Positions 20,098 to 44,390 of a DNA stretch of 64,000 bases are shown here, piece after piece; the first letter of the stretch is position 1, and each line of letters starts with the position of its first letter. The translations under genes were made by a program, and so were the position numbers. The notes below the pieces were generated by a model that saw nothing but the letters and a program-made list of their open reading frames with translations, ran no database searches and was not told where the DNA came from. Origin of the DNA: a virus; IMG/VR virus record IMGVR_UViG_3300026488_000015, positions 1-64,000 of that record; one strand, written 5' to 3'.

Positions 20098-20559
20098 ATG
20101 AATAACATAAGAAATTTTCAAAGAGATACACAAATCGAATTCGGTACACGATTATTCGATGAGGTTATAACATATAATGTGCAGAATGTGCTGTTACCTG
20201 GAATCGATATGGATGATGCTGAAGCCCACACACGAGGTATCAAGGCGCTTATTCAAGGTGATTCAGTGGAATTTCAGGAATTGAGCTTAACGATTATCGT
20301 TGATGAAGAAATGAAAGTATGGAAAGACCTAATGAAAAAAATGTTCGAACATATAGAAATTCCTGATAATACTTTTACTCTTAATCCTGCTGACTCGTGG
20401 ATTACTATAAGAAATTCCAAAGGTGAAGATGTTATGACTGTGACATTTTATGAATCTCACATTACTACAATAGGTTCATTAAGCTACGACTCGACTGGTG
20501 AAGATGATGAACTCATTATGGACATTAGCATTCGTTATGATTACTTTTTAATCACTTAA
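20098..20559 (+). CDS. 3: Tail completion / tube terminator (T4 gp3-like)
   Basis: VQ.V.LPGI, GD..EF..L....IVDEEMK.W, F..S....IG.L.Y. Confidence 0.75.
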   Translation: MNNIRNFQRDTQIEFGTRLFDEVITYNVQNVLLPGIDMDDAEAHTRGIKALIQGDSVEFQELSLTIIVDEEMKVWKDLMKKMFEHIEIPDNTFTLNPADSWITIRNSKGEDVMTVTFYESHITTIGSLSYDSTGEDDELIMDISIRYDYFLIT

Positions 20560-21285
20560 TCGTATTCTTTCATTATACCTCATTAAGAATGAAGATAGTT
20601 CGTGTGGTACTGAATTATGTTTTGCTAATAAATCTTTAGGAAAACAAGCACCACCAAAACCCATCTTACCATCTGCCCCTACATTAGACATAATGCCGTT
20701 AGGTAATTTGCTGTATATCTGTGCCAATTTCCTCGTATCAGAATTAAATGTTTCTTGTACAAAATTCCAAAACATAACCTCATAAGCCCCGTGAATATTT
20801 CTAAGGTATTTAAACTCTATAGCCTCTTCCTGAGTACAAAATTCGACTTCATCTACAACTACATCGAAATCAGTATTAAAACACTCTAAGACTATATTAG
20901 CATAGTCTATACGACCGCCTAGAATAAGCAGTTTTTGTGTGCTGAAATCTTTGTAAGAGGATATTTGGTTCAGAAATTCAGGATTAAAAACTATATTAAA
21001 ATCTTTATTGTACATTTTGATGTTATCATATAATACTGTGCTCTTAATAACGATGATGCCATTATACCCTCTCACCTTTTCAAAAAATTCAACGAATGGT
21101 GTTATATTTTGTTTCTCGTTGTCATTCAATGAAGGAAGGCACACAAAAATTATATCCGTTTCAGATAAATCTGTTTCTTTGTGTTCTTCCATATATTTGT
21201 CAAAAATCAATACATCTTTTTTATCTATGATGCTGTTATAGACAGCCTGTCCCACGAAACCAAACCCAGCTATTCCTATTTTCAT
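20548..21285 (-). CDS. UDP-glucose/GDP-mannose dehydrogenase family (short form)
   Basis: GFGFVG, FVCLP, IKSTV, FNPEFL, GFGGACFPKD. Confidence 0.88.
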   Translation of the reverse strand: MKIGIAGFGFVGQAVYNSIIDKKDVLIFDKYMEEHKETDLSETDIIFVCLPSLNDNEKQNITPFVEFFEKVRGYNGIIVIKSTVLYDNIKMYNKDFNIVFNPEFLNQISSYKDFSTQKLLILGGRIDYANIVLECFNTDFDVVVDEVEFCTQEEAIEFKYLRNIHGAYEVMFWNFVQETFNSDTRKLAQIYSKLPNGIMSNVGADGKMGFGGACFPKDLLAKHNSVPHELSSFLMRYNERIRLSD

Positions 21286-21824
21286 TTCAAATCCTCTATT
21301 GGTATTCGTTCTTTGCCGAATAATCTGTTAATATTATATTTCTTTAATTCTGTTTTTACTAATGGTACCTCGTTGTTGTACGGGTAGCAGTAGCTATCAA
21401 CCGAGATATTATGCTCTTTGAAGGCTTCATTCATATCAGATAAATCTTTCTTTATTATATCATATATTTCCTTAATACCTTGTCGATGGTCTAAGAAAAA
21501 ATGATTATGAGAGTGCCCACCTATTTCTGCATTATCTGAATCGTGGATTTCTTTAATCTGGTCCCAATCCATATAAGCTGAGGTGTCACCATTATCGAAA
21601 AAATTCTTATGAGCCGCAGCACAAGCTATTACCTCAGGATTTTGTTCACCTTCTGAAATAATACCAGTACTCACAAAAAATATGAGAGGTATGCCTAGAC
21701 CCAAGAAAAAATCAAGGTTCAGGTACTGCGTGTACAAGCCATCATCGAAGGTAATCAAATCAAACGATGAAAAATCTACATCAAGCATCCAAGGATGGAC
21801 CTCGTGTATCATTAATGTTTTCAT
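21282..21824 (-). CDS. Polysaccharide deacetylase (CE4/NodB family)
   Basis: ITFDDG, GGHSHNH, YPY. Confidence 0.85.
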   Translation of the reverse strand: MKTLMIHEVHPWMLDVDFSSFDLITFDDGLYTQYLNLDFFLGLGIPLIFFVSTGIISEGEQNPEVIACAAAHKNFFDNGDTSAYMDWDQIKEIHDSDNAEIGGHSHNHFFLDHRQGIKEIYDIIKKDLSDMNEAFKEHNISVDSYCYPYNNEVPLVKTELKKYNINRLFGKERIPIEDLK

Positions 21825-22438
21825 CGTTTGAATACCAATGAAAATTCCTCTGCATACTGGTACCCAAAAATATTACCGATGTGCTTGTGATATTCTCTAA
21901 TGCCGTCTAGTGAGCCTATACCACCAGATTTTATTTCTGTACTGTACTCTGAACACATTTCTAGTTTTTTCTCGATGGTTTCTGTTATATCTACGCAGAC
22001 ATTAAATAACCTAGGCGTAAAATTCCACTCATTGGAACCAGTAACGGGGAAGCTGTATAGTTCTTTAACAGAACATTCTTTCCTTGGTCTACAAACGAGC
22101 TTTACACTCTCTGCTACTGTTTTATGGTCGCGGTGCATATCCGTATCAGAATTTGTATAGACAATATCAGGTCTGAAGGAATCTACCTCATTCTGGATGG
22201 TGTAGGTGACACCGTTAAAAAAATCCTCTAAAGTGAGGTCTTCGGCTTCATAAATCTTATACGAAAAACCTAACGAAAGCATATTTTTTGTGAATGCTTT
22301 CTCTCTAGCAACTCTATCTGCTTTAGCCCTACCTTTACAGAGAACGACAACCTTAATCTCACCTTTAAGTAAAGCGAGAGCTCCACCCATACCTATTTCA
22401 GCATCATCAAGATGAGCTACAACTATTAATGTTTTCAT
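21821..22438 (-). CDS. PIG-L/LmbE family deacetylase
   Basis: AHLDDAEIGMGG, D.H.DH, VDI....EKK, AEEF. Confidence 0.88.
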   Translation of the reverse strand: MKTLIVVAHLDDAEIGMGGALALLKGEIKVVVLCKGRAKADRVAREKAFTKNMLSLGFSYKIYEAEDLTLEDFFNGVTYTIQNEVDSFRPDIVYTNSDTDMHRDHKTVAESVKLVCRPRKECSVKELYSFPVTGSNEWNFTPRLFNVCVDITETIEKKLEMCSEYSTEIKSGGIGSLDGIREYHKHIGNIFGYQYAEEFSLVFKR

Positions 22439-23334
22439 TTAAGGCTCTTGATAATATCATCGACTGAATATTTAGGCTCGTAGAATGCTTTAATCTTATC
22501 GATACAAGGTTTTCTCTCGTAAATCTCGCCAAAATTAGAGCTAAAATCAACCGAATAATCCCGGTACTCGATGTCATCGGATATTTTGAGAGCTAATTCC
22601 TTGATGCTGATGGAATTTTTATCATTCCCAATATTGTAAATCTCATTATTGTGCTCATCATTCAACCCAAGAAGCGTAAGCATCTCAACGGCATCACGGA
22701 TATCACAAAATGTTCTCGTTTGTTCGCCATCACCGTATACCACTAACGGTTGCTGTTCTTTTTCATTTTTGATAAAATTGGGAAGCACCATACCGTAATC
22801 AGGTAGCTGTCCTGGTCCCACCACATTGAAAAATCTTACGATGACGCTTGGGAAAGAATAAGATTTTAATAAAAATTCCGACATAAGCTTAGCACAAGCA
22901 TACGACCATCGTGCTGTATCAGGAGAGCCTATTTTTAGCGTGTCCGTTTCTTTAGCATTATTCGTTTCGCCGTACACCTCTGAGGTACTAGCGAATACCA
23001 CTTTCTTCTGATACTTTTCAAAGAGAGGAAAGAGGTTATTATTGATACCGAAAGAATTCCTTAAGGTGCTTGATGGATTTTCATCGATGTATTTCACACC
23101 GACTGAGCCTGCTAAATGGTATATCAGGTCGGCTTCTTTGATGGCTGACTCGACATCAGTAGCAATATCCCCACCAAGGTCGCCTTGTATCATAATAATA
23201 TCAGAATCGATATTATTTTCAGTTCTTGAAGTGCTCATATTATCGATTACTGTGATAGTATGTTTATCCTCTTGTAATCTGGTTGTTAGGTTTCTACCTA
23301 TGAAACCTTGTCCGCCTGTTATTAAAATATTCAT
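22435..23334 (-). CDS. NAD-dependent nucleotide-sugar epimerase/decarboxylase (extended SDR, UXS/ArnA-like)
   Basis: GGQGFIG, ASTSEVYG, RWSYACAK, RFFNVVGP, GDG.QTR.F. Confidence 0.88.
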   Translation of the reverse strand: MNILITGGQGFIGRNLTTRLQEDKHTITVIDNMSTSRTENNIDSDIIMIQGDLGGDIATDVESAIKEADLIYHLAGSVGVKYIDENPSSTLRNSFGINNNLFPLFEKYQKKVVFASTSEVYGETNNAKETDTLKIGSPDTARWSYACAKLMSEFLLKSYSFPSVIVRFFNVVGPGQLPDYGMVLPNFIKNEKEQQPLVVYGDGEQTRTFCDIRDAVEMLTLLGLNDEHNNEIYNIGNDKNSISIKELALKISDDIEYRDYSVDFSSNFGEIYERKPCIDKIKAFYEPKYSVDDIIKSLK

Positions 23335-23368
23335 TTATTTCCTTTTGTTTATTATATCTAATTTCCTC

Positions 23369-24379
23369 TTAATAATAACTATCACGATAAAATATCGGGT
23401 CTGTAATTTTTTCGCCTTCTTCGGGTATTACTTTTATATCCATCTTGTTTTCTATCCCATCGCATAAGAAGAAATGCTTACATTCTTTGCACTCTTTTGG
23501 CTTTGTGTACGAATTATTTCTATTCATTTTAGCAGCATCGAATAGAGCCTTAATCGGGTCTTCTCTGTATTCTTCAGCTGTAAGATTGTAGTTATAGACT
23601 GCCATATTCCAATCGTACACATCATAGATGTGCTGATAATAATCGCACACATATTTTTCATACCCTTTCATATAGCAATAAGGAGTATAACGGACATTCA
23701 CTATACAGAAATCTTTCAATAAATCGATAGCTTCGTGGATTTTTGGTGTGACCTCGTTATAATCTATTGGAATCTGTTTACCGGCATCAGACCAGTAATT
23801 TAAGGTCAAAAAATTCACCTCAAAAACATTGAACTGCTTTACAATATCCACAAACCGTTTAAGATACATATAATTTTCGTGAGTAACGGTGCAGTTTATT
23901 CTTACAACAATACCTACATCATTAGCATTCTGAATAGCTTCGAGCATCCGTCTGAAACCACCTTTCTTTTGTACTAATGAATCGTGAAGCTCTTCACTCG
24001 AACCGTGTAAGCTAAATAATATTTCTTTGAGGCCGTGGTCTTTGGATTCCAGTGCGAATTCTTTGTCGGCAAATTTATATCCGTTGGATAATGTTGTAAC
24101 GCTTCGGAATCTCCCGTTACAGTAATCTAAAATTTTAAACCAGTCTTTGTGTATAGAGCTTTCTCCACCACTCAAATCAACCTCTTGGATACCACAATCG
24201 TAGAAATAATCTATTCTCTCTTTGATTATGTTAAATTCTGTTACATCGTTGAGGTGGTCGATATAATAGCAGAATTTACACTCGTAATTGCAGTGAGTGC
24301 CTGTATCTAGCTTAGCTCTTGTGCATATATTATTTTCTGTGTTGTGTTCTAATCTATTTGATACTAGATTGTAATTCAT
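23369..24379 (-). CDS. Radical SAM enzyme with C-terminal Cys cluster
   Basis: CNYECKFC, SGGE, FSLHG; C-terminal CKECKHFFLCDG. Confidence 0.9.
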   Translation of the reverse strand: MNYNLVSNRLEHNTENNICTRAKLDTGTHCNYECKFCYYIDHLNDVTEFNIIKERIDYFYDCGIQEVDLSGGESSIHKDWFKILDYCNGRFRSVTTLSNGYKFADKEFALESKDHGLKEILFSLHGSSEELHDSLVQKKGGFRRMLEAIQNANDVGIVVRINCTVTHENYMYLKRFVDIVKQFNVFEVNFLTLNYWSDAGKQIPIDYNEVTPKIHEAIDLLKDFCIVNVRYTPYCYMKGYEKYVCDYYQHIYDVYDWNMAVYNYNLTAEEYREDPIKALFDAAKMNRNNSYTKPKECKECKHFFLCDGIENKMDIKVIPEEGEKITDPIFYRDSYY

Positions 24380-24403
24380 TTATACCCTTTATTGCAAAAT
24401 ATA

Positions 24404-25000
24404 CTAATCATTGCTCCATACCCTCATATTATGAATATCTACATAACTACTGTAAGATAACAAAAAATCATCTTGTCGTTTTTTTGTGAGTTGGTTTAGC
24501 AATAACAGCCCTCTTGCTGCATCATCAGGTATCATATTGAAATGATACCCTAGAATAGTTTCTCTAATACCACTCATATCTCTACCGTCCCAAGCCATCT
24601 GCTTAAGCACCTCATAATCTTTTTTGTTATTTAGTAATATTGCTCCACCTTTTCCTATATTAATACATTTCTTCTGTTGGAAACTCAAACATTGTATTTC
24701 GTTGTTGTACATATTTTTTTTGAACCCAACAGCACAATCCCATATATTTGTGTTTGCTAGTTTATAAGTTTCATACCATTGAATATGTTCGAACGACGGA
24801 GTATAACCTGCGTGCATGATAGACATAGGTACACTAAGGTAAGTATTTTGGGGTATAGATATTATTTTAGTATCTGGTTTAAAATATTTTAAACATAATA
24901 ATATAGCATTAGTACAGCTATCAGTGAGCACAACAAATGGTGCTCCAGTAAACTCTGATAGTTCTCTCTCAAACATATCAATAAATTCATTATTATTCAT
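24404..25000 (-). CDS. DegT/DnrJ/EryC1/StrS PLP aminotransferase, short form (start revised to MNNNEF)
   Basis: FERELS...G, SCTNA, LSFQQKK...GKGGAIL; AAGGA SD before ATG at 25000. Confidence 0.82.
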   Translation of the reverse strand: MNNNEFIDMFERELSEFTGAPFVVLTDSCTNAILLCLKYFKPDTKIISIPQNTYLSVPMSIMHAGYTPSFEHIQWYETYKLANTNIWDCAVGFKKNMYNNEIQCLSFQQKKCINIGKGGAILLNNKKDYEVLKQMAWDGRDMSGIRETILGYHFNMIPDDAARGLLLLNQLTKKRQDDFLLSYSSYVDIHNMRVWSND

Positions 25001-25913
25001 TAGTATCCTTCGGGTAACGCTTAGTGAACTCACATTCAGTACAGTAATCAAGATGGCAAGTAATAGTTCGGTTCACATTATATAGAGTTTCATTAGAATC
25101 GTTTATATTTACTGGTGTTTTACTCCCAATACAATTATGTGTTTCTACTCTACCATCTAAATAAAAGAATAGAGTATCTGTTTCACACTGGAGGCCTTTT
25201 GTTTTGTATTTTGTTTTGTATATTTCATTGCAATCAAATTCTTCACCATTTATGATTATTATACCATCGCTCTTAAAGCCAAAACCATCATTTGTAAATT
25301 TTTTGACTTCTACTGCATCTATAAATGGTGCAAAGTTTATAGGGAAACCTTCTCTTGTTAGCATAGTACTAACAAGAGATAATTTAGGGGATAATTTAGG
25401 GGTATTATAATCCAGTAAAAGCCTAATATAGTCAATATTATCTTTAAATCTTATTATATTTCTTAATGTTACTGTCATCTGTTTTTTATCAATAACAGTA
25501 TAATGGAAGCTGGGTGTAATAACTATTTTTAGATGTTTATATTTCTCTAAAATATAAGCTATATTTTCGGTTTTTAACATATTAGATAAAATCATAATCT
25601 TATTGTATTTTACATCAAGTTTGCTAAACTCCCCTAAGAAAAAATCTAAAGTATCCACTGTCATAAACGGTTCGCCACCTTCTACTGAAATGAGATTATC
25701 AAATTCGCTTCTTCTGTTAAAACTATATTCAATAAAATTAACTAATCTCACCAAAACTTCTTTGGAAGCGGTTAAACCATTATACATATTCTTATTTTGG
25801 TAGCAGTAGGGGCATTTCAAATTGCAAATATCATTTATCATAAAACCTATTATATTATTAGGTCTAAGGTCTTTTAGAATGTAAGTGTTATTATTTATAT
25901 CACTTGTTACCAT
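24993..25913 (-). CDS. Radical SAM enzyme (Twitch-like C-terminus)
   Basis: CNLKCPYC, GGEP, SFH, KGLQC...C...CHLDYCTEC. Confidence 0.88.
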   Translation of the reverse strand: MVTSDINNNTYILKDLRPNNIIGFMINDICNLKCPYCYQNKNMYNGLTASKEVLVRLVNFIEYSFNRRSEFDNLISVEGGEPFMTVDTLDFFLGEFSKLDVKYNKIMILSNMLKTENIAYILEKYKHLKIVITPSFHYTVIDKKQMTVTLRNIIRFKDNIDYIRLLLDYNTPKLSPKLSLVSTMLTREGFPINFAPFIDAVEVKKFTNDGFGFKSDGIIIINGEEFDCNEIYKTKYKTKGLQCETDTLFFYLDGRVETHNCIGSKTPVNINDSNETLYNVNRTITCHLDYCTECEFTKRYPKDTNE

Positions 25914-25925
25914 TTTTGGCTCCTG

Positions 25926-26855
25926 TTATTCTGTGTAATTGTAATTTCTAGCTGTACCAGTAATACATATAGTTTCATCAAGTACTGGTACTATTTCGTG
26001 TTCGATTAAATCATCTATTTCTTTCTTGACTTTGCTTACGCTTTCTATTGGTATGTGTATGCTTTTTTCTATAGCAATATCAGTCCCGTATAGGTTGAAC
26101 AATATTTTATACTTTTTGGGTATATCCATTCTTTCTAATACTGAATAATAGTCATAATGGTAAAATGAGTAATCTACAAAGGTTATATCTTTATTTATAT
26201 ATGCATTAGTATAGTTTAGTTCTCTAGCATCAACTATAAATCTGAACTTCTTCTCTAAAAGGTATATAGCTATTTCTTCGCAGAAATTCTGAAGTCTATA
26301 ATTTATGACTATATTTTTATGAGCGATACCTTTTTTAGCTATATTTATGCTTTCTTCCAACCATAATCTAGCAAAATCTTGATTCTTTGTGTAAATAAAA
26401 AAAGTGTCATAATGTTCTTTGTAAGATTCATCTAAAAATTTAGTAAAACAGTATGTGAGCATCGATTCTTCTACACTTTCGGGTGTTTTGAAAACATAAA
26501 CATCTTCATTATTGATTTTAGGTAACGATGACACGCAGTAAACATCGGGGTCTAAAAATACATAACCATCTAAGTCTGGATACTCATTAACTACAAAATT
26601 AAATACTTCAGGCATCAGCAAGAAAAAACACTCTGTTTTGTAGTAAAATTTGTTGTTTGTAAGCTCTATATTAAGTAGAGTTACATTATCGTATTTTTCA
26701 ATAAATCTCACAAAAATATCTGGTAGGACTGAATTATTGTGATTGACTACAATAATTCTATGTTCTTTATCAAAATTATTTTTTATAGACTCTAAAGCTA
26801 CTACAAGTTGAGGTATAGTATTTGGGTGGGCCTCTATCGGGAATATGAAGGTCAT
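25926..26855 (-). CDS. Putative GT-A glycosyltransferase
   Basis: LESI, YVFLDPDVY (DxD), EE.A, HY motifs. Confidence 0.55.
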   Translation of the reverse strand: MTFIFPIEAHPNTIPQLVVALESIKNNFDKEHRIIVVNHNNSVLPDIFVRFIEKYDNVTLLNIELTNNKFYYKTECFFLLMPEVFNFVVNEYPDLDGYVFLDPDVYCVSSLPKINNEDVYVFKTPESVEESMLTYCFTKFLDESYKEHYDTFFIYTKNQDFARLWLEESINIAKKGIAHKNIVINYRLQNFCEEIAIYLLEKKFRFIVDARELNYTNAYINKDITFVDYSFYHYDYYSVLERMDIPKKYKILFNLYGTDIAIEKSIHIPIESVSKVKKEIDDLIEHEIVPVLDETICITGTARNYNYTE

Positions 26856-26857
26856 TG

Positions 26858-27769
26858 CTAATCCTTTGTTTTATAATGGTCAAGTGAACTTGCCCATAAA
26901 CAGGAGTTCTCAAATGGGCAAATAATAGGTTTAGTCATATCATATGCTTTGAAAAAATCTAAGTGCGTAAAAATATTCATTGGTTCAAATAAAGTACACA
27001 TCTGTTTTACTCTACCTGAACGGCACTCGATTGTGAAGAATATATAGTAGCATTTCCACCCATAAGTGTCCATAGGTAGCATATCGTGAGTGTATAAATC
27101 ATAATCATTCCATTCTACGCCAAAGTTATCTATGTATTCTTTGGTATTATTTAATTTCATTGTATTTAGTATATAATTGTTAGACTTGAACTTAGAGTTG
27201 ATATAAACAGGCTTAATATTATAATTTTTGTTGTGTTCTTCGGCAAAGTTTTGCATATCAATAATATCATTGTAATATTTCTTGTTTGGGTGTATCATTA
27301 TGTTTAGTTCTACATTCTTTATGGTTAAAAGTTTTTCTTTGAACTCTAAATCTTTTAGTGTATCTGCGTGCCAAGAAATATGATAAACTATATCAGGATT
27401 GATATAGTTTATTTTGTGTAGTTTCTCTGGACTTAATTGTAAATTAGTGTTAATATGCAAATCTTTAATTTTTCCTTCATCTATGTATTTTTGAATGTAT
27501 TCTACAATATAAACGATTTTGTAGTGTAATGTGCATTCCCCACCACTCAAACAGATAGATACTGGATGAGGTATCTTCGCTAGTTCATCGATTACAGCTA
27601 GAACTTCTTTAGTAGAACTAAATTTACCCCAAGTTTCTGAATCATTTCTCATATAACAATAACTACAATGCATATTACATATTTCTGTGATTAACAATTC
27701 AAAAATAAGAAAGTCGTGGTCCTTAATTGCACCTTTACTAGAAAACGATGTTATGTCTTTGTTATTCAT
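26858..27769 (-). CDS. Radical SAM enzyme (start revised to MNNKDI)
   Basis: CNMHCSYC, SGGE, SWH, GWKC...C...CPFENSC; GAGGA SD. Confidence 0.88.
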   Translation of the reverse strand: MNNKDITSFSSKGAIKDHDFLIFELLITEICNMHCSYCYMRNDSETWGKFSSTKEVLAVIDELAKIPHPVSICLSGGECTLHYKIVYIVEYIQKYIDEGKIKDLHINTNLQLSPEKLHKINYINPDIVYHISWHADTLKDLEFKEKLLTIKNVELNIMIHPNKKYYNDIIDMQNFAEEHNKNYNIKPVYINSKFKSNNYILNTMKLNNTKEYIDNFGVEWNDYDLYTHDMLPMDTYGWKCYYIFFTIECRSGRVKQMCTLFEPMNIFTHLDFFKAYDMTKPIICPFENSCLWASSLDHYKTKD

Positions 27770-28565
27770 TTGGTATCCTCTTTTTGGGTAATAAGAAAGC
27801 ACAATCTAACTTACAAGACTCTCTGCTACATATTGTTTTATTATATTCTTTTATGATATTTAGATTTTCTTCGTTCATTTCCATATCAATATTATGGTTG
27901 CAGTCATTGGAACGCATATAGTTATTCACTACATCTATTTCGTTATAATCACACTCGTAGTCTTTGAAGTGGACTTGTACATCATTGTATCTAGCCATAT
28001 TTTTAAGATGGGGTAGTTTAATATCGTATACCCAATCTTCTATGATGTCTTTATCGTTGTCGCCATTTGTTACATCGTGAATAAATGTTATAACTGTATT
28101 AACTTTCAGTCTAGTTATCAATTTCAGCAAAGGTTTAGTCATATTTTGGGCAGGTACCGTTAATTCTACTGTAATACCATTAGAAACAAATTTCTCTATA
28201 TTTCTAAAGAATAGTTCATCATCTGTTTCTTGTAAGTGATACGAAAATGTCCAAGTAAAATTTGAGGCGAGTTCTAAATCGGCCGTGTCAAAAAAATTAG
28301 TGGTACCATTAGTGTATATGTGGCCTTCGTGGTCTAAATCTCTAACTACTACTAATACTCGCGAAAATCTAGGGTATAATGTAGGTTCACCACCTATAAG
28401 ACTTATGATACTTCTCGGAAAGTCTTTTAATAATGAAAGACCTTCTTTAATTTTATCGAAACTTAATAAAGTATTCCATTTCATATCAGCACGAGCATAA
28501 CAATACGAGCAGTTCTGGTTGCACATAGTATTGATATAATAATTGAACTGATATTTTAAATTAAT
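27762..28565 (-). CDS. Radical SAM enzyme (possible ATT start at 28565; first ATG at 28526)
   Basis: CNQNCSYC, GGEPTL, SYH, CSRESCKLDC; AAAGGA 6 nt before an in-frame ATT. Confidence 0.8.
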   Translation of the reverse strand: MNLKYQFNYYINTMCNQNCSYCYARADMKWNTLLSFDKIKEGLSLLKDFPRSIISLIGGEPTLYPRFSRVLVVVRDLDHEGHIYTNGTTNFFDTADLELASNFTWTFSYHLQETDDELFFRNIEKFVSNGITVELTVPAQNMTKPLLKLITRLKVNTVITFIHDVTNGDNDKDIIEDWVYDIKLPHLKNMARYNDVQVHFKDYECDYNEIDVVNNYMRSNDCNHNIDMEMNEENLNIIKEYNKTICSRESCKLDCAFLLPKKRIPNE

Positions 28566-29389
28566 GTCATATCCTTTGTTGTTCTAATTGTACCAGTACA
28601 ATCAGTGCATTCACTTCTTTGGCAATCAAATTTATTATTATAACTCTTAAAGAACATAGGGTTCGTAAATATGTTATCCATAACATTATTACAATCGTTA
28701 GAAATACTTCCGTCTATTGCTATATTTAGCTCTTGTATAGTACATAGACCAATATCTTTAGGTATTATTTTTTTGTGTATTTTAAAATAATCACGATAGT
28801 TATATAGGATTCCATCATATAAGTATTCCTTATCACCCATATTCAAAAAGAGCATATCACTCAAATCTTCATTTACAATCGTATCATCATCATAAACCAT
28901 AGAATGTTCAATTTTATAACCCAAGGTATCTAATTCTATATAACGCATCTTGAATAATTCTGTCTGCGTCAAAACTACATTAACGATTGCATCACCAGGT
29001 ATTTTTAAATTATCCTTAAAAGCGTTGTATTCTGTAATATTTATATCGTGGAGAGTAAATACATAAATAGCATCTAAGCCGTACTTGCCTTTAATACAAC
29101 CATTAGTCAAAATAACGGTGTTCAATACTTTAGTATTGCTGTTGCATTCATTCACTATTTCTTCGATATTGGGGTGGGCTAATGCCTCTCCACCAAATAA
29201 TAAGATATTAAAGTCAAACCTAGAAAATTTAGTGCATTTTAGAATATACTTAATTCTATCTAGCGTTTGTACTTCATCCCACTTCTTATCTTTTCTAGCA
29301 AAACAGTAAGGGCAATTCAAATTACAAACTGTGGTAATATCTATGAAAAGATTTATTGTGTTATCTTCAGTTTCGGTATATTTGAACAT
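28556..29389 (-). CDS. Radical SAM enzyme
   Basis: CNLNCPYC, GGE, TNG, C-terminal CQRSECTDC. Confidence 0.88.
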   Translation of the reverse strand: MFKYTETEDNTINLFIDITTVCNLNCPYCFARKDKKWDEVQTLDRIKYILKCTKFSRFDFNILLFGGEALAHPNIEEIVNECNSNTKVLNTVILTNGCIKGKYGLDAIYVFTLHDINITEYNAFKDNLKIPGDAIVNVVLTQTELFKMRYIELDTLGYKIEHSMVYDDDTIVNEDLSDMLFLNMGDKEYLYDGILYNYRDYFKIHKKIIPKDIGLCTIQELNIAIDGSISNDCNNVMDNIFTNPMFFKSYNNKFDCQRSECTDCTGTIRTTKDMTLI

Positions 29390-29994
29390 ATTATCTCCTT
29401 TAGTGATAAATTTTTGTTATCTATTCCTTGTTCAAAGAACATATCTTTATACAATTTATAATCATAAATATTTAATAGTTCTTGTAATAATTTTTCATCA
29501 TTTTCGTTGTGATATTTAGTAGGGAATTGTATTTCTGTTTTTTTGAATATAATTTGAGATAACTGGAATAAGGCAAAGTCTCTCGATGTCAATTTATATT
29601 TAGTTTTATTCAAAATATACTCTTTAAACATAAAAACTGTTTTGTTATCATCGTATGCTTTATATAAACCTATATGCAAACTAGACTGGTTTATATTATA
29701 TAATACATTTGCCAAATTCATTATTATATCATCATCTTCTAAGTACATAATATATTCACCAGTACTTAAATCGTATAAGTATTCGTACAAATCATTAACA
29801 TTTGCTGTCGAGTAATAGTAGCGCACTTTGCTATGAGGTATTTCGGTAATATCGTTGCTATCATTATTTACGATTATCTCAAAATCTTCAAAGCTGTTTA
29901 TACTTAATTCCTTTAGTAAGCTGTTTATACACTCTTCAAATAACTTTGGTCTATTATGTGTTAGAATCAGCACACTTAATTTTAGGGCTCTCAT
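29353..29994 (-). CDS. Glycosyltransferase family 2
   Basis: LSVLILTHNRP, EIIVNND, GEYIMYLEDDD. Confidence 0.85.
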   Translation of the reverse strand: MRALKLSVLILTHNRPKLFEECINSLLKELSINSFEDFEIIVNNDSNDITEIPHSKVRYYYSTANVNDLYEYLYDLSTGEYIMYLEDDDIIMNLANVLYNINQSSLHIGLYKAYDDNKTVFMFKEYILNKTKYKLTSRDFALFQLSQIIFKKTEIQFPTKYHNENDEKLLQELLNIYDYKLYKDMFFEQGIDNKNLSLKEIICSNIPKLKITQ

Positions 29995-29996
29995 AC

Positions 29997-30863
29997 TTAT
30001 TTCTTTTTGTTGAATTTATAATAATCAGAACACCTGCAGCAATCAACTATACAAGTATTATATTGTAATAATTTTTCTGTTGTTATCATAAGCCCCATAT
30101 TTGCACTCGTACAACTATCATAGAAATTGCCGTTAGGCGATATTCTATAAGTAGTTTGCCTACATTGATAGCCTTTGAACTTATGTAGATTCTGTGAGTG
30201 TATTTCAAATTTCTTGAATGTTTTTGTTGTGCCGTCAGAAAAAGCATAAGGTATATCTACTTCATCAGCACCCTCTACAAAATATCTGTTAAAACTCTCT
30301 GGTATTCTATTTTCGTTTTTCCAACCAGTCGTATCTGATAAGAAAGCTGGGCTACTAGGGAACTTAGTATTTTCCAAAACAATTTTACATTTATCAAGGT
30401 AATCATCCAACAAAGAGACTGATATTTTAAGACCGAAAGTTGGAGTAAAATCATATAATTTCTCCATAAATACAGTATCGTATTCAGGATGGTAGGATAT
30501 CATCATATCAAATTTGTCATTTAGCTTATTAAATTGCTCGTAATATTTGTTTGGTTTAGCAAAATTAGTTATTAACTCGGTATTAGTGCAATTAGGTATA
30601 TTTGTTAGTGCCTCTAATATCTCATATAAATCTTCGTGTAGTGTAGGTTCACCACCAAGCACCAAAATAGTAAAAGGCATATCTATTTTTTTGAGTTTAG
30701 CTATTACAAATTTCCACATCTTGTTTTTTTGAATATATGCATCTGGAACTTTATTGCTAGCAAATACATTACAATATGAACATTGGAACTGGCAATAATC
30801 AGTAATAACCCAATTAAATTCTAACACTTTGGGGTCTTTATACCCGGCCTCAATCACTTCCAT
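29997..30863 (-). CDS. Radical SAM enzyme
   Basis: CQFQCSYC, GGEPTLH, SYHPE, FKGYQC...C...CIVDCCRC. Confidence 0.88.
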   Translation of the reverse strand: MEVIEAGYKDPKVLEFNWVITDYCQFQCSYCNVFASNKVPDAYIQKNKMWKFVIAKLKKIDMPFTILVLGGEPTLHEDLYEILEALTNIPNCTNTELITNFAKPNKYYEQFNKLNDKFDMMISYHPEYDTVFMEKLYDFTPTFGLKISVSLLDDYLDKCKIVLENTKFPSSPAFLSDTTGWKNENRIPESFNRYFVEGADEVDIPYAFSDGTTKTFKKFEIHSQNLHKFKGYQCRQTTYRISPNGNFYDSCTSANMGLMITTEKLLQYNTCIVDCCRCSDYYKFNKKK

Positions 30864-30872
30864 TATATATCC

Positions 30873-31466
30873 TTATACTAGTATTGTAAGTTTCGGTGTC
30901 TTACTATGATTAAATAAGTTCACTAAATCTGATTTATCTACATTCATTTTATCTTTCACTATGCTATAAATTTTAAACATATTCTTTTTTGATAAGCCAA
31001 CTACATTGTCACCTATATCAGCACCAGTTACTCGTATGATTTTATCATTGTTGGTATCCAAGAACTGACCTAAGTTATGTATGTTATTATCAGTAACTAC
31101 AACCATATAATCTATATTTTTGAAATCAATAATAGGTACATACGCATCAAGATGCTCAGAGCAATGATAATATATATCGTTTATTTCAGTTAAGTAGTCT
31201 TGGTAGTTCTTCATAAACAAACCATTAGTATTTACAGCTATTATACATTCTTTCTTCTTCAGTTCCCTTAGAGTATAAATTAGTATATCTTCAGATACAA
31301 GGCCTGGTTCACCACCACTTAAAGAAACCATAGAACCTTTTTCTATGCTATTAAGGTGTTCTTTTATTGAATCAAAAGTAATCGTAGGTTTATTGTGAGT
31401 ATCCACCACACAAAAGTCACAAAACCAATTACATCTGTGTGTTAGCATTATACAATATTCTTTCAT
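30873..31466 (-). CDS. Radical SAM enzyme (short, core only)
   Basis: CNWFCDFC, SGGEP, NTNG. Confidence 0.85.
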   Translation of the reverse strand: MKEYCIMLTHRCNWFCDFCVVDTHNKPTITFDSIKEHLNSIEKGSMVSLSGGEPGLVSEDILIYTLRELKKKECIIAVNTNGLFMKNYQDYLTEINDIYYHCSEHLDAYVPIIDFKNIDYMVVVTDNNIHNLGQFLDTNNDKIIRVTGADIGDNVVGLSKKNMFKIYSIVKDKMNVDKSDLVNLFNHSKTPKLTILV

Positions 31467-33876: not shown

Positions 33877-34485
33877 TTATCTATTCATTTTATCGTAAGC
33901 AATATAAAAATCACCGAGAATTTTATCAACCTCTTCTGTATCTTTTGCATTAATGATTTTCTTCACAAAATCAGCACACATATTCCCAAAGTCAATAGAT
34001 GTAGTTACTTTATCTAAGAGTATTAAGTAGCTTTCTAGTTTTTCTATGATTGCTTCATCATCTTTTTCAATAATTTCAATATATTTTTCTTCACGATTAC
34101 TATTAGTGATTACAAACCCTTCGGCAGTAAGTTCATTGTTTAAAACAGTAAAAGAAACAATATCTAAAGATGTCATATTTGCCATATTATATGACATCTT
34201 CTTATTTACTCTCATCATATTAATTTTCTTATATACTTCAAATTCATCTACTGCTTCATCAGAAATATTAATATCCCCTGGAAGTGCTTCATCAGTTATC
34301 ATTTCTTTATTAATAGTGATGGTCTTCCCTTCTGAAAGACCATCACTAATCAACTGATAACTATTATAAGAAAGCTTAATAACTTTATCCTCTCTATTTG
34401 CTAAACCGTCAAACGAACTTTTAGTAGTACCAGTCACTAAATAATGAGTACCTCTATCTTCTACTATTGCTAATTCAAATATCAT
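33877..34485 (-). CDS. Hypothetical protein downstream of the Cys-rich gene
   Basis: AAGGAG SD; C-terminus IINAKDTEEVDKI loosely resembles fibre-chaperone/DUF4376 endings. Confidence 0.65.
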   Translation of the reverse strand: MIFELAIVEDRGTHYLVTGTTKSSFDGLANREDKVIKLSYNSYQLISDGLSEGKTITINKEMITDEALPGDINISDEAVDEFEVYKKINMMRVNKKMSYNMANMTSLDIVSFTVLNNELTAEGFVITNSNREEKYIEIIEKDDEAIIEKLESYLILLDKVTTSIDFGNMCADFVKKIINAKDTEEVDKILGDFYIAYDKMNR

Positions 34486-34509
34486 TTTAAATCTCCTTTA
34501 ATTTTATTT

Positions 34510-35010
34510 TTATGCATAGTTACAACCACAATTACCGTGACAAGTACACACGCTGTGGCCGCCGCAGTCACTATTACATATACAATCAGTTCTAAGCGAA
34601 TTGTATAATGCTAACATATCTGATGCTAATTTACTTGCATAAACAATGCTACCAGCAGAGACGGCACCAGTCGAACCGTGCCCTGTGCCGTTTAAATCAA
34701 CAATCAATTTATTAAAATCGTTTGCATAAACAGTATCACCTACAGCGATTCCCGCTGTAGCAGTTGTACTAAAATTATAGTTACCATTCTGATTCCATCT
34801 AGCAATTTCATTAATTGTGTTTGCTCTTAATAATTCTAAATCTGATGCGTTAATTATATTCCCAGCAGTTGCATTTGATAATGCAACTACTCTATTAGAA
34901 GCACAAGATGCTCTATTATACGAGCAACTATCAGTAGTACAATTACTAGTACAATGCGAAGGAGTACACCACCCCGTAGATGTTGCCGCCGTCCCTGAAC
35001 CTACTGCCAT
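34510..35010 (-). CDS. Cys-rich protein, candidate radical-SAM substrate or virion appendage
   Basis: 12 Cys in terminal clusters; three G..(I/V).A...L repeats; AGGAGG SD; directly after rSAM/SPASM gene. Confidence 0.75.
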   Translation of the reverse strand: MAVGSGTAATSTGWCTPSHCTSNCTTDSCSYNRASCASNRVVALSNATAGNIINASDLELLRANTINEIARWNQNGNYNFSTTATAGIAVGDTVYANDFNKLIVDLNGTGHGSTGAVSAGSIVYASKLASDMLALYNSLRTDCICNSDCGGHSVCTCHGNCGCNYA

Positions 35011-35011
35011 A

Positions 35012-36130
35012 TTATTTTCCTCCTAAAAGTTGCGAGAGAGCTCTATCTACTTTTCCAAACGCTTGATAGTAACCACATAAACCGTGAACTTGGTTATCTA
35101 ACCATTTATCTTCGTAAGAATCCTTTTGTGAAGCAGCATAAGATGAAGTAGGACAAACAAAACAAGTAGTTGCTACACAACTTTTGCATTGCTCGTTTGT
35201 CTTAGCTATCATCTTACTAAACTTCTCTCTATCTAACTTATTTATATCACCGTCAAGCGATAAAAGTTTGTGGTTCTCTTTATCATCAAGATATAAAGCA
35301 CCGTGGCACGGGTAGAAATTACCATCTGTGTCAAGTATAGTCATATTCTTACCAGAAGAACAAGTAAATCTAGTATCATCTCCTCTGTACCAACTGAATA
35401 GCATATGACCAAATTCTGAATAAAAGTCTAATTCTAGTGCACTTATTTCTCTAATTGCTTGTTCAAAATAAGGCAAATAAGTATTAGGGTCTTGAAGTTT
35501 TGTATGGTAATCAAGAGTAGGTGAATATCTAACATAGGTCGTTTCGCTATCATATTTTCTTTTTAAATCTCTAAATTCTTTCCATACAGTAACCATATTA
35601 TGCACCTCAGATAAAGGGAGTGTGCTTTTTAGGCTTAATGATTTTAGTCCTGCTTTACTCAACCAATCGAAAGTTTTAAGTACTTTATCGGCTGTTGATT
35701 CGCCTTTATGGTCTATACGGAATTTATCGTTAATTATTCTACCATCATACGATACTTGTACTCGTAGCTTAGAAGCATCAACACTATTAATGAATTTTTC
35801 CATAGTGCTTTGGTTAAAAGCATTAGTATATAAGTGATAATCAATATTATCATAATCGTGGAAATAGTTCATAAGCTCAGTCATAACATAGTTATTAAGA
35901 GTAGGTTCTCCACCCCAAAAATCTACACCAAGAGTATCATATTCTGCTTTAAACCAATCAGACGCTAAGGTTTCTTTAATTTTTTCTATATATTGAGGTA
36001 TATTTTGGTTTACTTGTTTATTATCAACAGCTTTTTCACCTTCAAAACAATATGTACAAGCCATATCGCAAGTCGTTACTGTGGTAATTTCAAAATTGAA
36101 CCCTCCTTTTGTCTGTATTCTATCACTCAT
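35012..36130 (-). CDS. Radical SAM/SPASM maturase
   Basis: CDMACTYC, WGGEPTL, SYDG; SPASM C.SG...DG.FYPC...CKSC....C..CP...C. Confidence 0.9.
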   Translation of the reverse strand: MSDRIQTKGGFNFEITTVTTCDMACTYCFEGEKAVDNKQVNQNIPQYIEKIKETLASDWFKAEYDTLGVDFWGGEPTLNNYVMTELMNYFHDYDNIDYHLYTNAFNQSTMEKFINSVDASKLRVQVSYDGRIINDKFRIDHKGESTADKVLKTFDWLSKAGLKSLSLKSTLPLSEVHNMVTVWKEFRDLKRKYDSETTYVRYSPTLDYHTKLQDPNTYLPYFEQAIREISALELDFYSEFGHMLFSWYRGDDTRFTCSSGKNMTILDTDGNFYPCHGALYLDDKENHKLLSLDGDINKLDREKFSKMIAKTNEQCKSCVATTCFVCPTSSYAASQKDSYEDKWLDNQVHGLCGYYQAFGKVDRALSQLLGGK

Positions 36131-36402
36131 TACATTTTCCCTTTCATTGATAGAATATCATCTATTATGGTTTGTAATTCAGCTTCTTCCATTTTATCTG
36201 CTTCAAGTTTTATCTCTTCTAGCATTTTATTACCCATATCCGCCAATATTGCACTCATTTCAGTAGATACTGGTAGCAACTCTACTGATGCCTCCATCAG
36301 TTTTGTAGAAGCCGCAAATAGATGAGCGTTTCTATCATTCTTAGATAAGATAATTTTCTCTACTCTATTAGCAGAATTCTCGTTTAGTGTTTTATTAATC
36401 AT
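36130..36402 (-). CDS. Small helical hypothetical protein between two SPASM enzymes
   Basis: AAGGA SD; coupled to the next gene. Confidence 0.7.
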   Translation of the reverse strand: MINKTLNENSANRVEKIILSKNDRNAHLFAASTKLMEASVELLPVSTEMSAILADMGNKMLEEIKLEADKMEEAELQTIIDDILSMKGKM

Positions 36403-36411
36403 TATGTTCCT

Positions 36412-37368
36412 TTAAACCCAGCTAACTAAATCAGCAATGAGGTCTTTATTTAATTTATTTATATTGCCTACAAGTATACCGTAGATAAACACATACATTT
36501 CGCATAGATATTCTATCGGTTTTTGGTTTTCTAGCTGTTGTATCAGACAACCTTTCTCGCAATATTGGTTTACGCTACAACTCTTACAGAAATCTTGTAT
36601 TGTTTCTGAATTTACTTGCGAATTAAAAATATCTTCTTTATCAAAATATCTGTAACAACTAAAAAATTTATTATCGTGAAATGCTAGAACAGTATCCCCA
36701 GCACCACAATCTTTTGGTGAGTATCCTTTTTTATGGTATCTAAGTATATGAGTTAAAAAATGAATGAAAAATGCTGGTATAGTATTTGTTGATGTAGCAT
36801 AATCCATTAATCCAGAAATATCTTCTTTGGCTTGCTCTATATTATCTTTATGCCATATACCGATATCCCTGACAATAGTAATCCCAGGATTAACTCCAAA
36901 CATATTGTACAATAATTTATGATTATCTTTCAACCCAAACATTGTACCATTCCACATAGCGTGTATTTTCAAATCATCGATAGTTCTAATAAGCTCTATT
37001 AAAGCCGGATGGAAGTCTTTTCCTCGCTCTGATTGCCAAATACCATCGTGAGATACAGAAACAGTCACTTTATTGTCGTTGAATATTTTGATTATGCCCG
37101 GTGCTAGTAGCAACCCATTAGTCATAATATTAGTTTTGAACCCATTACTATTACTGTACTCTATGAATTGTATGACTAAAGGCATTTGCATTAAAGGTTC
37201 TCCGCCCATAATATCAAAAATGTAATTTTCGTTTTCCTCGTATATATCTTCAAATTCTTTCTTAAATGTATCGAATGATATTTTTTCCGTTGATTTTTTG
37301 TCTATTATATAACAGTAAGAGCAGTCTAAATTGCACCCTTCTGATAATATCAGCGATATATGCTTCAT
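36412..37368 (-). CDS. Radical SAM/SPASM maturase
   Basis: CNLDCSYC, GGEPL, TNG, SHDG; CGAG...C...CKSC....YC.KGC...C. Confidence 0.9.
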   Translation of the reverse strand: MKHISLILSEGCNLDCSYCYIIDKKSTEKISFDTFKKEFEDIYEENENYIFDIMGGEPLMQMPLVIQFIEYSNSNGFKTNIMTNGLLLAPGIIKIFNDNKVTVSVSHDGIWQSERGKDFHPALIELIRTIDDLKIHAMWNGTMFGLKDNHKLLYNMFGVNPGITIVRDIGIWHKDNIEQAKEDISGLMDYATSTNTIPAFFIHFLTHILRYHKKGYSPKDCGAGDTVLAFHDNKFFSCYRYFDKEDIFNSQVNSETIQDFCKSCSVNQYCEKGCLIQQLENQKPIEYLCEMYVFIYGILVGNINKLNKDLIADLVSWV

Positions 37369-37426: not shown

Positions 37427-37462
37427 TATTATAACATAAGAGCACTTAAAATACTCTTAAAT
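37427..37462 (-). promoter_or_regulatory. Early promoter heading the radical-SAM island
   Basis: TTTAAG-N-TTAAG-N9-GT-TATAAT. Confidence 0.75.
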
Positions 37463-44382: not shown

Positions 44383-44390
44383 TATTTATA
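44383..44390 (-). promoter_or_regulatory. Late promoter TATAAATA
   Basis: Exact match upstream of the tail fibre gene. Confidence 0.8.

Follow-up and report, generated by a model that had tools for sequence, protein, structure and literature searches.

Why should a bacteriophage place two radical S-adenosylmethionine (rSAM) enzymes with SPASM domains directly behind its long tail-fiber gene, together with a small protein that has cysteine clusters at both ends? The question is raised by a 64,000-nucleotide stretch of DNA (called the window here) that forms the first 64 kb of the IMG/VR record IMGVR_UViG_3300026488_000015, a 146.5-kb viral contig (G000) that is 68% complete and has T4-like structural genes. 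An earlier note on this DNA had described a cassette of five genes: rSAM/SPASM enzyme A, a small protein, rSAM/SPASM enzyme B, a Cys-rich protein (called the Cys protein here) and a partner. All five open reading frames are present on the minus strand as described (Table 1), and the order recurs in approximately 55 relatives. The note had further proposed that the Cys protein is a cross-linked fiber protein resembling a peptide that is made on ribosomes and modified after translation (RiPP). Two parts of that proposal are supported by comparison (linkage, a Cys register, the S74 domain, a late-promoter motif and a homologue in phage IBB_35): the SPASM pair probably acts on the Cys protein, which appears to be a fiber-type virion protein, as judged from the S74 domain of its homologues, the late-promoter motif and the distant homologue in the IBB_35 virion table. 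An adhesin function, which the note also put forward, is not supported. The reading we prefer, at a probability of about 0.52, is that the SPASM pair installs intrachain thioethers from Cys to the β-carbon of the residue at i+3 in a fiber-type particle protein.

The Cys-protein locus set comprises 55 distinct loci, and each count is limited to those loci where the feature could be scored. Enzyme B lies directly upstream of the Cys gene in all 53 loci with upstream DNA. In 40 of 44 loci the small protein is flanked by enzymes A and B, and in 47 of 48 the partner is at most two genes away from the Cys gene. For a non-circular test, viral loci were fetched by enzyme B or by the downstream glycosyltransferase-like gene, without the use of the Cys gene, yielding 72 dereplicated loci. 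Enzyme B was present in 55 of these, and a protein with the Cys register was identified by a strict filter in 45 of the 55 and by a hidden Markov model (HMM) only in four more. No Cys-register protein was present in the 17 loci that lack enzyme B, and every Cys protein that passed the strict filter (45/45) was co-located with enzyme B. Taken together, the counts from the two sets indicate that the five cassette genes are the true core.

Both enzymes score above the Pfam Radical_SAM (PF04055) cut-off, and both have a CxxxCxxC motif followed by seven C-terminal cysteines in SPASM spacing, which confirms their initial assignment. In enzyme A, the cysteines are at positions 12/16/19 (radical SAM) and then at 221, 238, 261, 264, 270, 274, and 289. 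The family alignment of enzyme B contains 10 invariant cysteines; those checked in the enzyme A family are likewise conserved. The score of enzyme B against TIGR04085 is 26.4, just under the cut-off of 27. PapB is the top NCBIfam match of both enzymes (62 bits for A and 85 bits, E 6e-24, for B; cut-off 340), and the sulfatase-maturase and other SPASM families also match, weakly. From their sequences, we assign enzymes A and B to unnamed families of SPASM enzymes. The 90-residue small protein belongs to a family of 27 sequences and is possibly a subunit or adaptor.

The Cys protein has 12 cysteines, five within residues 15–36 and seven within residues 143–163, so that the clusters reported at both ends are indeed there, as is the strong Shine–Dalgarno sequence of its gene (AGGAGG at 35019–35024). 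The three repeats reported for its middle part are also real and start at residues 49, 90, and 119, but the fiber-like character ascribed to them is not supported. AlphaFold2 predicts a confident three-helix bundle at residues 55–141, with one helix per repeat, in a pseudo-repeat core of about residues 49–141. A β-type fiber shaft made of the repeats was rejected because the model is a helical bundle. A fold search with the Cys protein gave no convincing match to solved folds (best Z 7.3 and 6.8).

The residues that follow the cysteines are far from random. Asn, Asp, or His occupies the +3 position of 10 of the 12 cysteines, compared with a mean of 2.95 in shuffled sequences. Chance clustering of this pattern was rejected, as none of 20,000 shuffles reached 10. 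Across 65 representatives, the Cys+3 residue is Asn/Asp/His in 80% of cases against a background of 20%, with Asn dominant. Where a register site holds something else, it is mostly Tyr or Phe; Glu and Gln are absent. These residue types share a β-CH2 next to an unsaturated carbon, and this would fit radical chemistry that joins Cys to the β-carbon through a thioether.

The enzyme–Cys linkage would be the same if the pair modified the Cys protein by another chemistry or geometry, such as α-carbon sactionines, interchain links in a trimer, oxidation of Cys to formylglycine, or aromatic +2 links in heptad relatives. Two enzymes suggest two reactions, and the weak matches to sulfatase-maturase and other SPASM families point in the same direction. 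Many linked substrates have a seven-residue repeat yet match the profile of the window family, and in these heptad-type substrates every third Cys has a Cys at +3 and an aromatic residue at +2. We nevertheless consider another chemistry unlikely, since the +3 residues are limited to side chains with an activated β-carbon and the best family matches of the enzymes are of the ranthipeptide type.

The link between the Cys protein and tail fibers comes from its homologues. A full Peptidase_S74 (PF13884) domain directly follows the Cys cluster in 111 of 131 homologues, and a stub is found in 15. The S74 homologues have a conserved Ser right after the last Cys motif and a Lys at +5. Such a Ser/Lys(+5) pair is the cleavage dyad of the S74 chaperones that fold trimeric tail fibers and spikes. 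Close homologues of the window Cys protein end in a short Peptidase_S74 stub, a more distant one has the whole domain, and the window protein itself stops one residue past the S74 cleavage position. The domain has been lost or split in several lineages. At six loci (L045, L052, L058, L062, L066, and L068), the Ser/Lys stub is on the Cys protein and the remainder of the domain is the overlapping next gene; a separate remainder gene is also seen at L087:81-365. The split chaperone may work in trans or be joined by a frameshift. When long fibers with a fused Cys module were sought, the only matches were to the S74 domain and had no Cys clusters, which is weak evidence of absence.

Repeated CxC motifs right before an S74 chaperone would also suit an unmodified metal-binding fiber part, in which the CxC pairs of three chains hold zinc, iron, or an iron–sulfur center and the rSAM enzymes serve sugars or another product of the gene array downstream. 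HxH pairs bind metal in T4 gp37 and gp12, His and Asp near Cys can be ligands, and glycosyltransferase and sugar genes do lie downstream of the core. However, Asn dominates at +3 and is replaced there by Phe and Tyr, residues that bind metals poorly or not at all. The Cys gene is accompanied by enzymes A and B, whereas the glycosyltransferase/rSAM array is often apart from the core. The restriction of +3 to side chains with an activated β-carbon favors the β-thioether over metal binding, short of proof, and we regard an unmodified metal-binding protein as quite improbable.

The earlier note saw no obvious terminator between the fiber gene and the cassette, and we found nothing terminator-like in the 96-bp gap. 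Dependence of the cassette on read-through from the fiber gene is nevertheless not supported: the gap has a separate early-type promoter motif, and only 15 of 32 loci have a fiber-type gene close to the cassette. Across the 146.5-kb contig, the early-type motif has 41 copies (at most one mismatch), all intergenic and typically approximately 40 nt before non-structural genes. Structural genes are preceded not by this motif but by a T4-late-type one. In the window, the early-type copies are at 2553, 3565, 5086, 5236, 7743, 9752, 15329, 20045, and 37439; copies occur on one strand only, with periodic AT-rich repeats upstream. The late-type motif that precedes the Cys gene is embedded in enzyme B. 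It recurs in 12 of 33 divergent loci, between −234 and −266 and under different codons. Synonymous-codon shuffles gave a mean of 2.0 loci with the motif and none of 2000 reached 12, although the loci are not fully independent. A further late-like motif at 36463 may reflect coding sequence. The arrangement suggests that the enzymes are made early and that the substrate is additionally made late, as expected of a particle protein.

Relatives of the cassette are present in cultured Campylobacter phages. A tblastn search with the Cys protein and the partner against cultured phages gave no match, and a profile search was needed. In CP220, enzyme A corresponds to CPT_0023, the small protein to CPT_0020 (weak), enzyme B to CPT_0184, and the partner to CPT_0015 (E 7e-37); three GT-B genes and other conserved genes have homologues as well. 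The cassette homologues are scattered over the CP220 genome and not clustered. One CP220 protein, CPT_0180, passes the register filter, with 27 of its 35 cysteines in register; its repeat had been treated only as a DNA repeat (PMC2853527). Gene 3-9 of IBB_35 is 94% identical to CPT_0180 and is listed in the virion mass spectrometry (MS) table of that phage at 2.6% coverage (PMC3322345 supplement). The calculated mass of its product is 60,317, against 60,318 in the table. Gene 2-36, the IBB_35 orthologue of the partner, does not appear in that table.

The whole rSAM/glycosyltransferase/sugar operon is also found beside aroC in chromosomes of predatory Halobacteriovorax, and it occurs in 7 of the 401 Bdellovibrionota genomes sampled. 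The system is thus not confined to virions. In the Halobacteriovorax/Bdellovibrionota copies, a short gene takes the place of the fiber gene, and no S74 domain was seen in the copies inspected. The late motif before the Cys gene is absent from the one Halobacteriovorax copy tested. According to the tree, which is unrooted, the cellular copies arose at least twice; it does not allow the direction of transfer to be inferred. The Bdellovibrionota loci are L029, L030, and L098–L104, and in G349 the copy is rearranged and has two genes for the partner. With a complete operon in such chromosomes, the Cys protein could be modified and yet remain intracellular or on the cell surface, S74 only freeing its C-terminus. 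The early-type promoter of the cassette and the lineages with a lost or split S74 domain would agree with a product outside the particle. We hold this to be very unlikely, as phages have the late motif that the Halobacteriovorax copy lacks, the IBB_35 homologue is in the virion table, and the Cys gene is frequently beside fiber genes.

Catalysis, the type of bond, the location in the virion of this phage, and a role at the fiber tip and in host binding are what we infer, starting from the observed anatomy, linkage, register, and S74 domain of the homologues. The proposed β-thioether system would be a phage-encoded, RiPP-like protein maturation. Enzymes A and B would be expressed from the early promoter, with B certainly and A usually a part of the system, and would take a hydrogen from the β-carbon of the Asn, Asp, or His (sometimes Tyr or Phe) three residues after a Cys. 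The resulting Cys-S-Cβ thioether rings could number up to approximately 10 in the 166-residue protein, and those of the C-terminal cluster would be interleaved. As a late-made particle protein, the substrate would be of the tail-fiber type. In most relatives, a self-cleaving S74 chaperone would fold it, and after cleavage the mature protein would end in the stapled cluster; in the lineage of the window, the chaperone would have been lost from the Cys gene. The 90- and 202-residue proteins would assist.

Several observations weigh against this proposal. Both Cys regions have a pLDDT (predicted local distance difference test) below 50 in the AlphaFold2 model. Two conserved cysteines (position 15 and column 151) do not fit the register, and the register could instead be structural, Asn and Asp being favored in turns. 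The window Cys protein lacks the S74 domain, and a search of the contig, which is 68% complete, did not find one either. Enzymes A and B fall far under the cut-off of every named curated NCBIfam maturase family. Neither has a RiPP recognition element (RRE) at its N-terminus, where the rSAM motif begins within 25 residues. A SPASM domain by itself does not fix the reaction as thioether formation, as SPASM enzymes also catalyze other chemistry. CPT_0180 matches the window family only weakly in direct comparison (hhalign probability 43) and is bridged to it by intermediates, and the coverage of gene 3-9 in the virion table amounts to about one peptide. No phage structural genes were seen beside the bacterial chromosomal operons.

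A broader form of the proposal is that a widespread group of phages, T4-like and jumbo and with cultured Campylobacter phages among them, has dedicated rSAM enzymes by which a particle protein matures into a densely thioether-stapled and possibly glycosylated fiber tip, with acceptors that include the β-carbons of His, Tyr, and Phe, and that predatory Halobacteriovorax uses the same pathway, perhaps for surface fibers. We put this forward tentatively, at somewhat less than even odds. No description of such a system in viruses was found in the literature searched, most subscription journals being outside its reach; the nearest systems are CrpC/CrpA and QhpD/QhpC. Whole-protein thioether stapling by rSAM enzymes has been shown for very few substrates (QhpC and CrpA). 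If the proposal is true, part of the phage particle is built by enzymes, and many overlapping rings are installed by two short enzymes without an RRE. It also bears on a puzzle that dates from 2010, namely why CP220-type Campylobacter phages have 11–12 radical-SAM genes, which were called highly unusual and metabolic, with their role unknown (PMC2853527). Since these phages are in culture and a candidate substrate is already in a virion proteome, the chemistry can be checked on real particles.

Clustering at 50% gives 279 relatives for the partner, and its model has a pLDDT of 93. Its suggested role as chaperone or adaptor is not supported, the fold matches being weak (DUF4376-like, Foldseek E 0.01 or worse). 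There was no Pfam match, and other fold searches gave generic helical matches. No profile match was found between the partner and the DUF4376 protein of the phage itself (53331–53867, minus strand, tail region; hhalign probability 0.2). The partner does not resemble an RRE either, as its order of secondary structure differs. Long homologues (P0095, P0058, P0130, and P0161) repeat the small N-terminal β domain, with two or three copies each. We propose that the partner possibly assists maturation.

The glycosyltransferase-fold (GT-B) genes are at most six genes from the core in 34 of 35 loci, mostly right behind it. In approximately 16 loci no enzyme B or Cys protein lies within 8 kb of a glycosyltransferase, which is thus separable from the core. 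The 298-residue GT-B protein has an Atlas TM (template modeling) score of 0.69–0.70 to GT4 proteins, and the three genes match each other by HMM. The gene types of the accessory array recur in relatives in variable number, and the product of this array of seven rSAM genes and sugar-pathway genes is possibly a variable glycan. An amidinotransferase(-like) gene is present in the CP220 and Halobacteriovorax versions of the array.

The C-terminal domain of the long fiber, which we took to be like an autocleaving chaperone (Pfam and the PDB did not confirm this), is common to genes upstream of many related cassettes and matches CP220 CPT_0036c and the virion protein CPT_0103 by HMM. A second fiber-like gene of 1012 residues, with an end that resembles that of the long fiber, lies on the opposite strand among early genes (115551–118589 of G000, plus strand). 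By eye, tandem related tail-tube-like genes (72886–76292 of G000) recall the multiple gp19 copies of CP220. An open reading frame with flagellin-like ends (100285–101109 of G000, plus strand) and SmpB-, ClpP-, and FliM-like starts were also seen by eye elsewhere in this contig, the former outside the window. An identical copy of the Cys protein is on record in a contig of 331,651 bases, and the full genome may therefore be much larger than G000. The host is probably of the Campylobacterota type, judging from the promoter style and the nearest cultured relatives.

Table 1. Features of the locus (window coordinates).
Feature	Coordinates	Strand	Remarks
rSAM/SPASM enzyme A, 318 aa (amino acids)	36412..37368	−	Pfam PF04055; without N-terminal RRE
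Small conserved Cys-free protein, 90 aa	36130..36402	−	Translation coupled to that of enzyme B
rSAM/SPASM enzyme B, 372 aa	35012..36130	−	Pfam PF04055; of the two enzymes, the one with the tighter linkage to the Cys protein
Cys-rich putative substrate (Cys protein), 166 aa	34510..35010	−	N-terminal Cys-x-x-N/D motifs, three-helix pseudo-repeat core, C-terminal Cys cluster
Conserved partner, 202 aa	33877..34485	−	Small β-rich N-domain and helical C-domain
Long tail-fiber gene, 2296 aa	37465..44355	−	PHROG tail-fiber matches; own late promoter motif at 44383–44390
Three related GT-B (GT4-like) glycosyltransferase-fold genes, 239, 259, and 298 aa	31463..33868	−	
Accessory array: seven further rSAM genes, GT2, DegT aminotransferase, epimerase-like, PIG-L, UDP-sugar dehydrogenase-like	20548..31466	−	
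Early/host-type extended −10 promoter motif	37427..37439	−	Fiber-to-cassette gap, 71 nt before enzyme A; putative function
T4-late-type promoter motif	35239..35246	−	Inside the enzyme B gene, 236 nt upstream of the Cys gene; putative function

Among known systems, the phages CP220, CPt10, and IBB_35 (Firehammervirus) have homologues of every cassette gene, but dispersed in the genome. The S74 tailspikes and fibers share the PF13884 domain and Ser/Lys(+5) pair at the end of Cys-protein homologues; the window protein differs in that it lacks the domain and in that its body is a small helical bundle with Cys clusters and not a β-helix. The CXXX-repeat system (target TIGR04114/PF27846, enzyme TIGR04115) likewise consists of predicted rSAM-modified Cys-repeat proteins, but the phage period is CxC with N/D/H at +3 and not a Cys at every fourth residue. 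TIGR04114 had no match in the window Cys protein or four homologues, both enzymes score 44–50 bits against TIGR04115 (cut-off 350), and an Atlas cluster that is 40% PF27846 and mostly viral is a low-score look-alike.

Among the ranthipeptide maturases, PapB is the top match of the enzymes, and NxxcB links Cys to the β-carbon of Asn at a three-residue spacing (PMC9389541). Their substrates are short leader–core peptides with export genes, and NxxC runs in the opposite direction, whereas the cassette substrate has 166 residues. In the QhpD/QhpC system, a SPASM enzyme forms several Cys-to-Asp/Glu thioethers in the γ subunit of quinohemoprotein amine dehydrogenase, according to PMC13692751. There the substrate is a leader-bearing subunit of an enzyme, and the maturase has an RRE; the cassette enzymes score 56–59 bits against TIGR03906 (cut-off 453). 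CrpC of Methanococcus voltae (TIGR04463) installs ranthionines in CrpA, a 29-kDa protein with C-X-X-Q/D repeats (PMC13692751). Here too, a SPASM rSAM gene lies beside a Cys-rich protein with C-X-X-acceptor repeats, but the system is archaeal, with one RRE-containing enzyme and a substrate with a leader-like N-terminus. The phage cassette instead has two enzymes without an RRE, an S74-linked substrate of the fiber type, and an Asn/His-rich register, and its enzymes score 29 bits against TIGR04463 (cut-off 525). Although it falls outside both of these families by score, the cassette appears, by analogy, to work like CrpC/CrpA and QhpD/QhpC.

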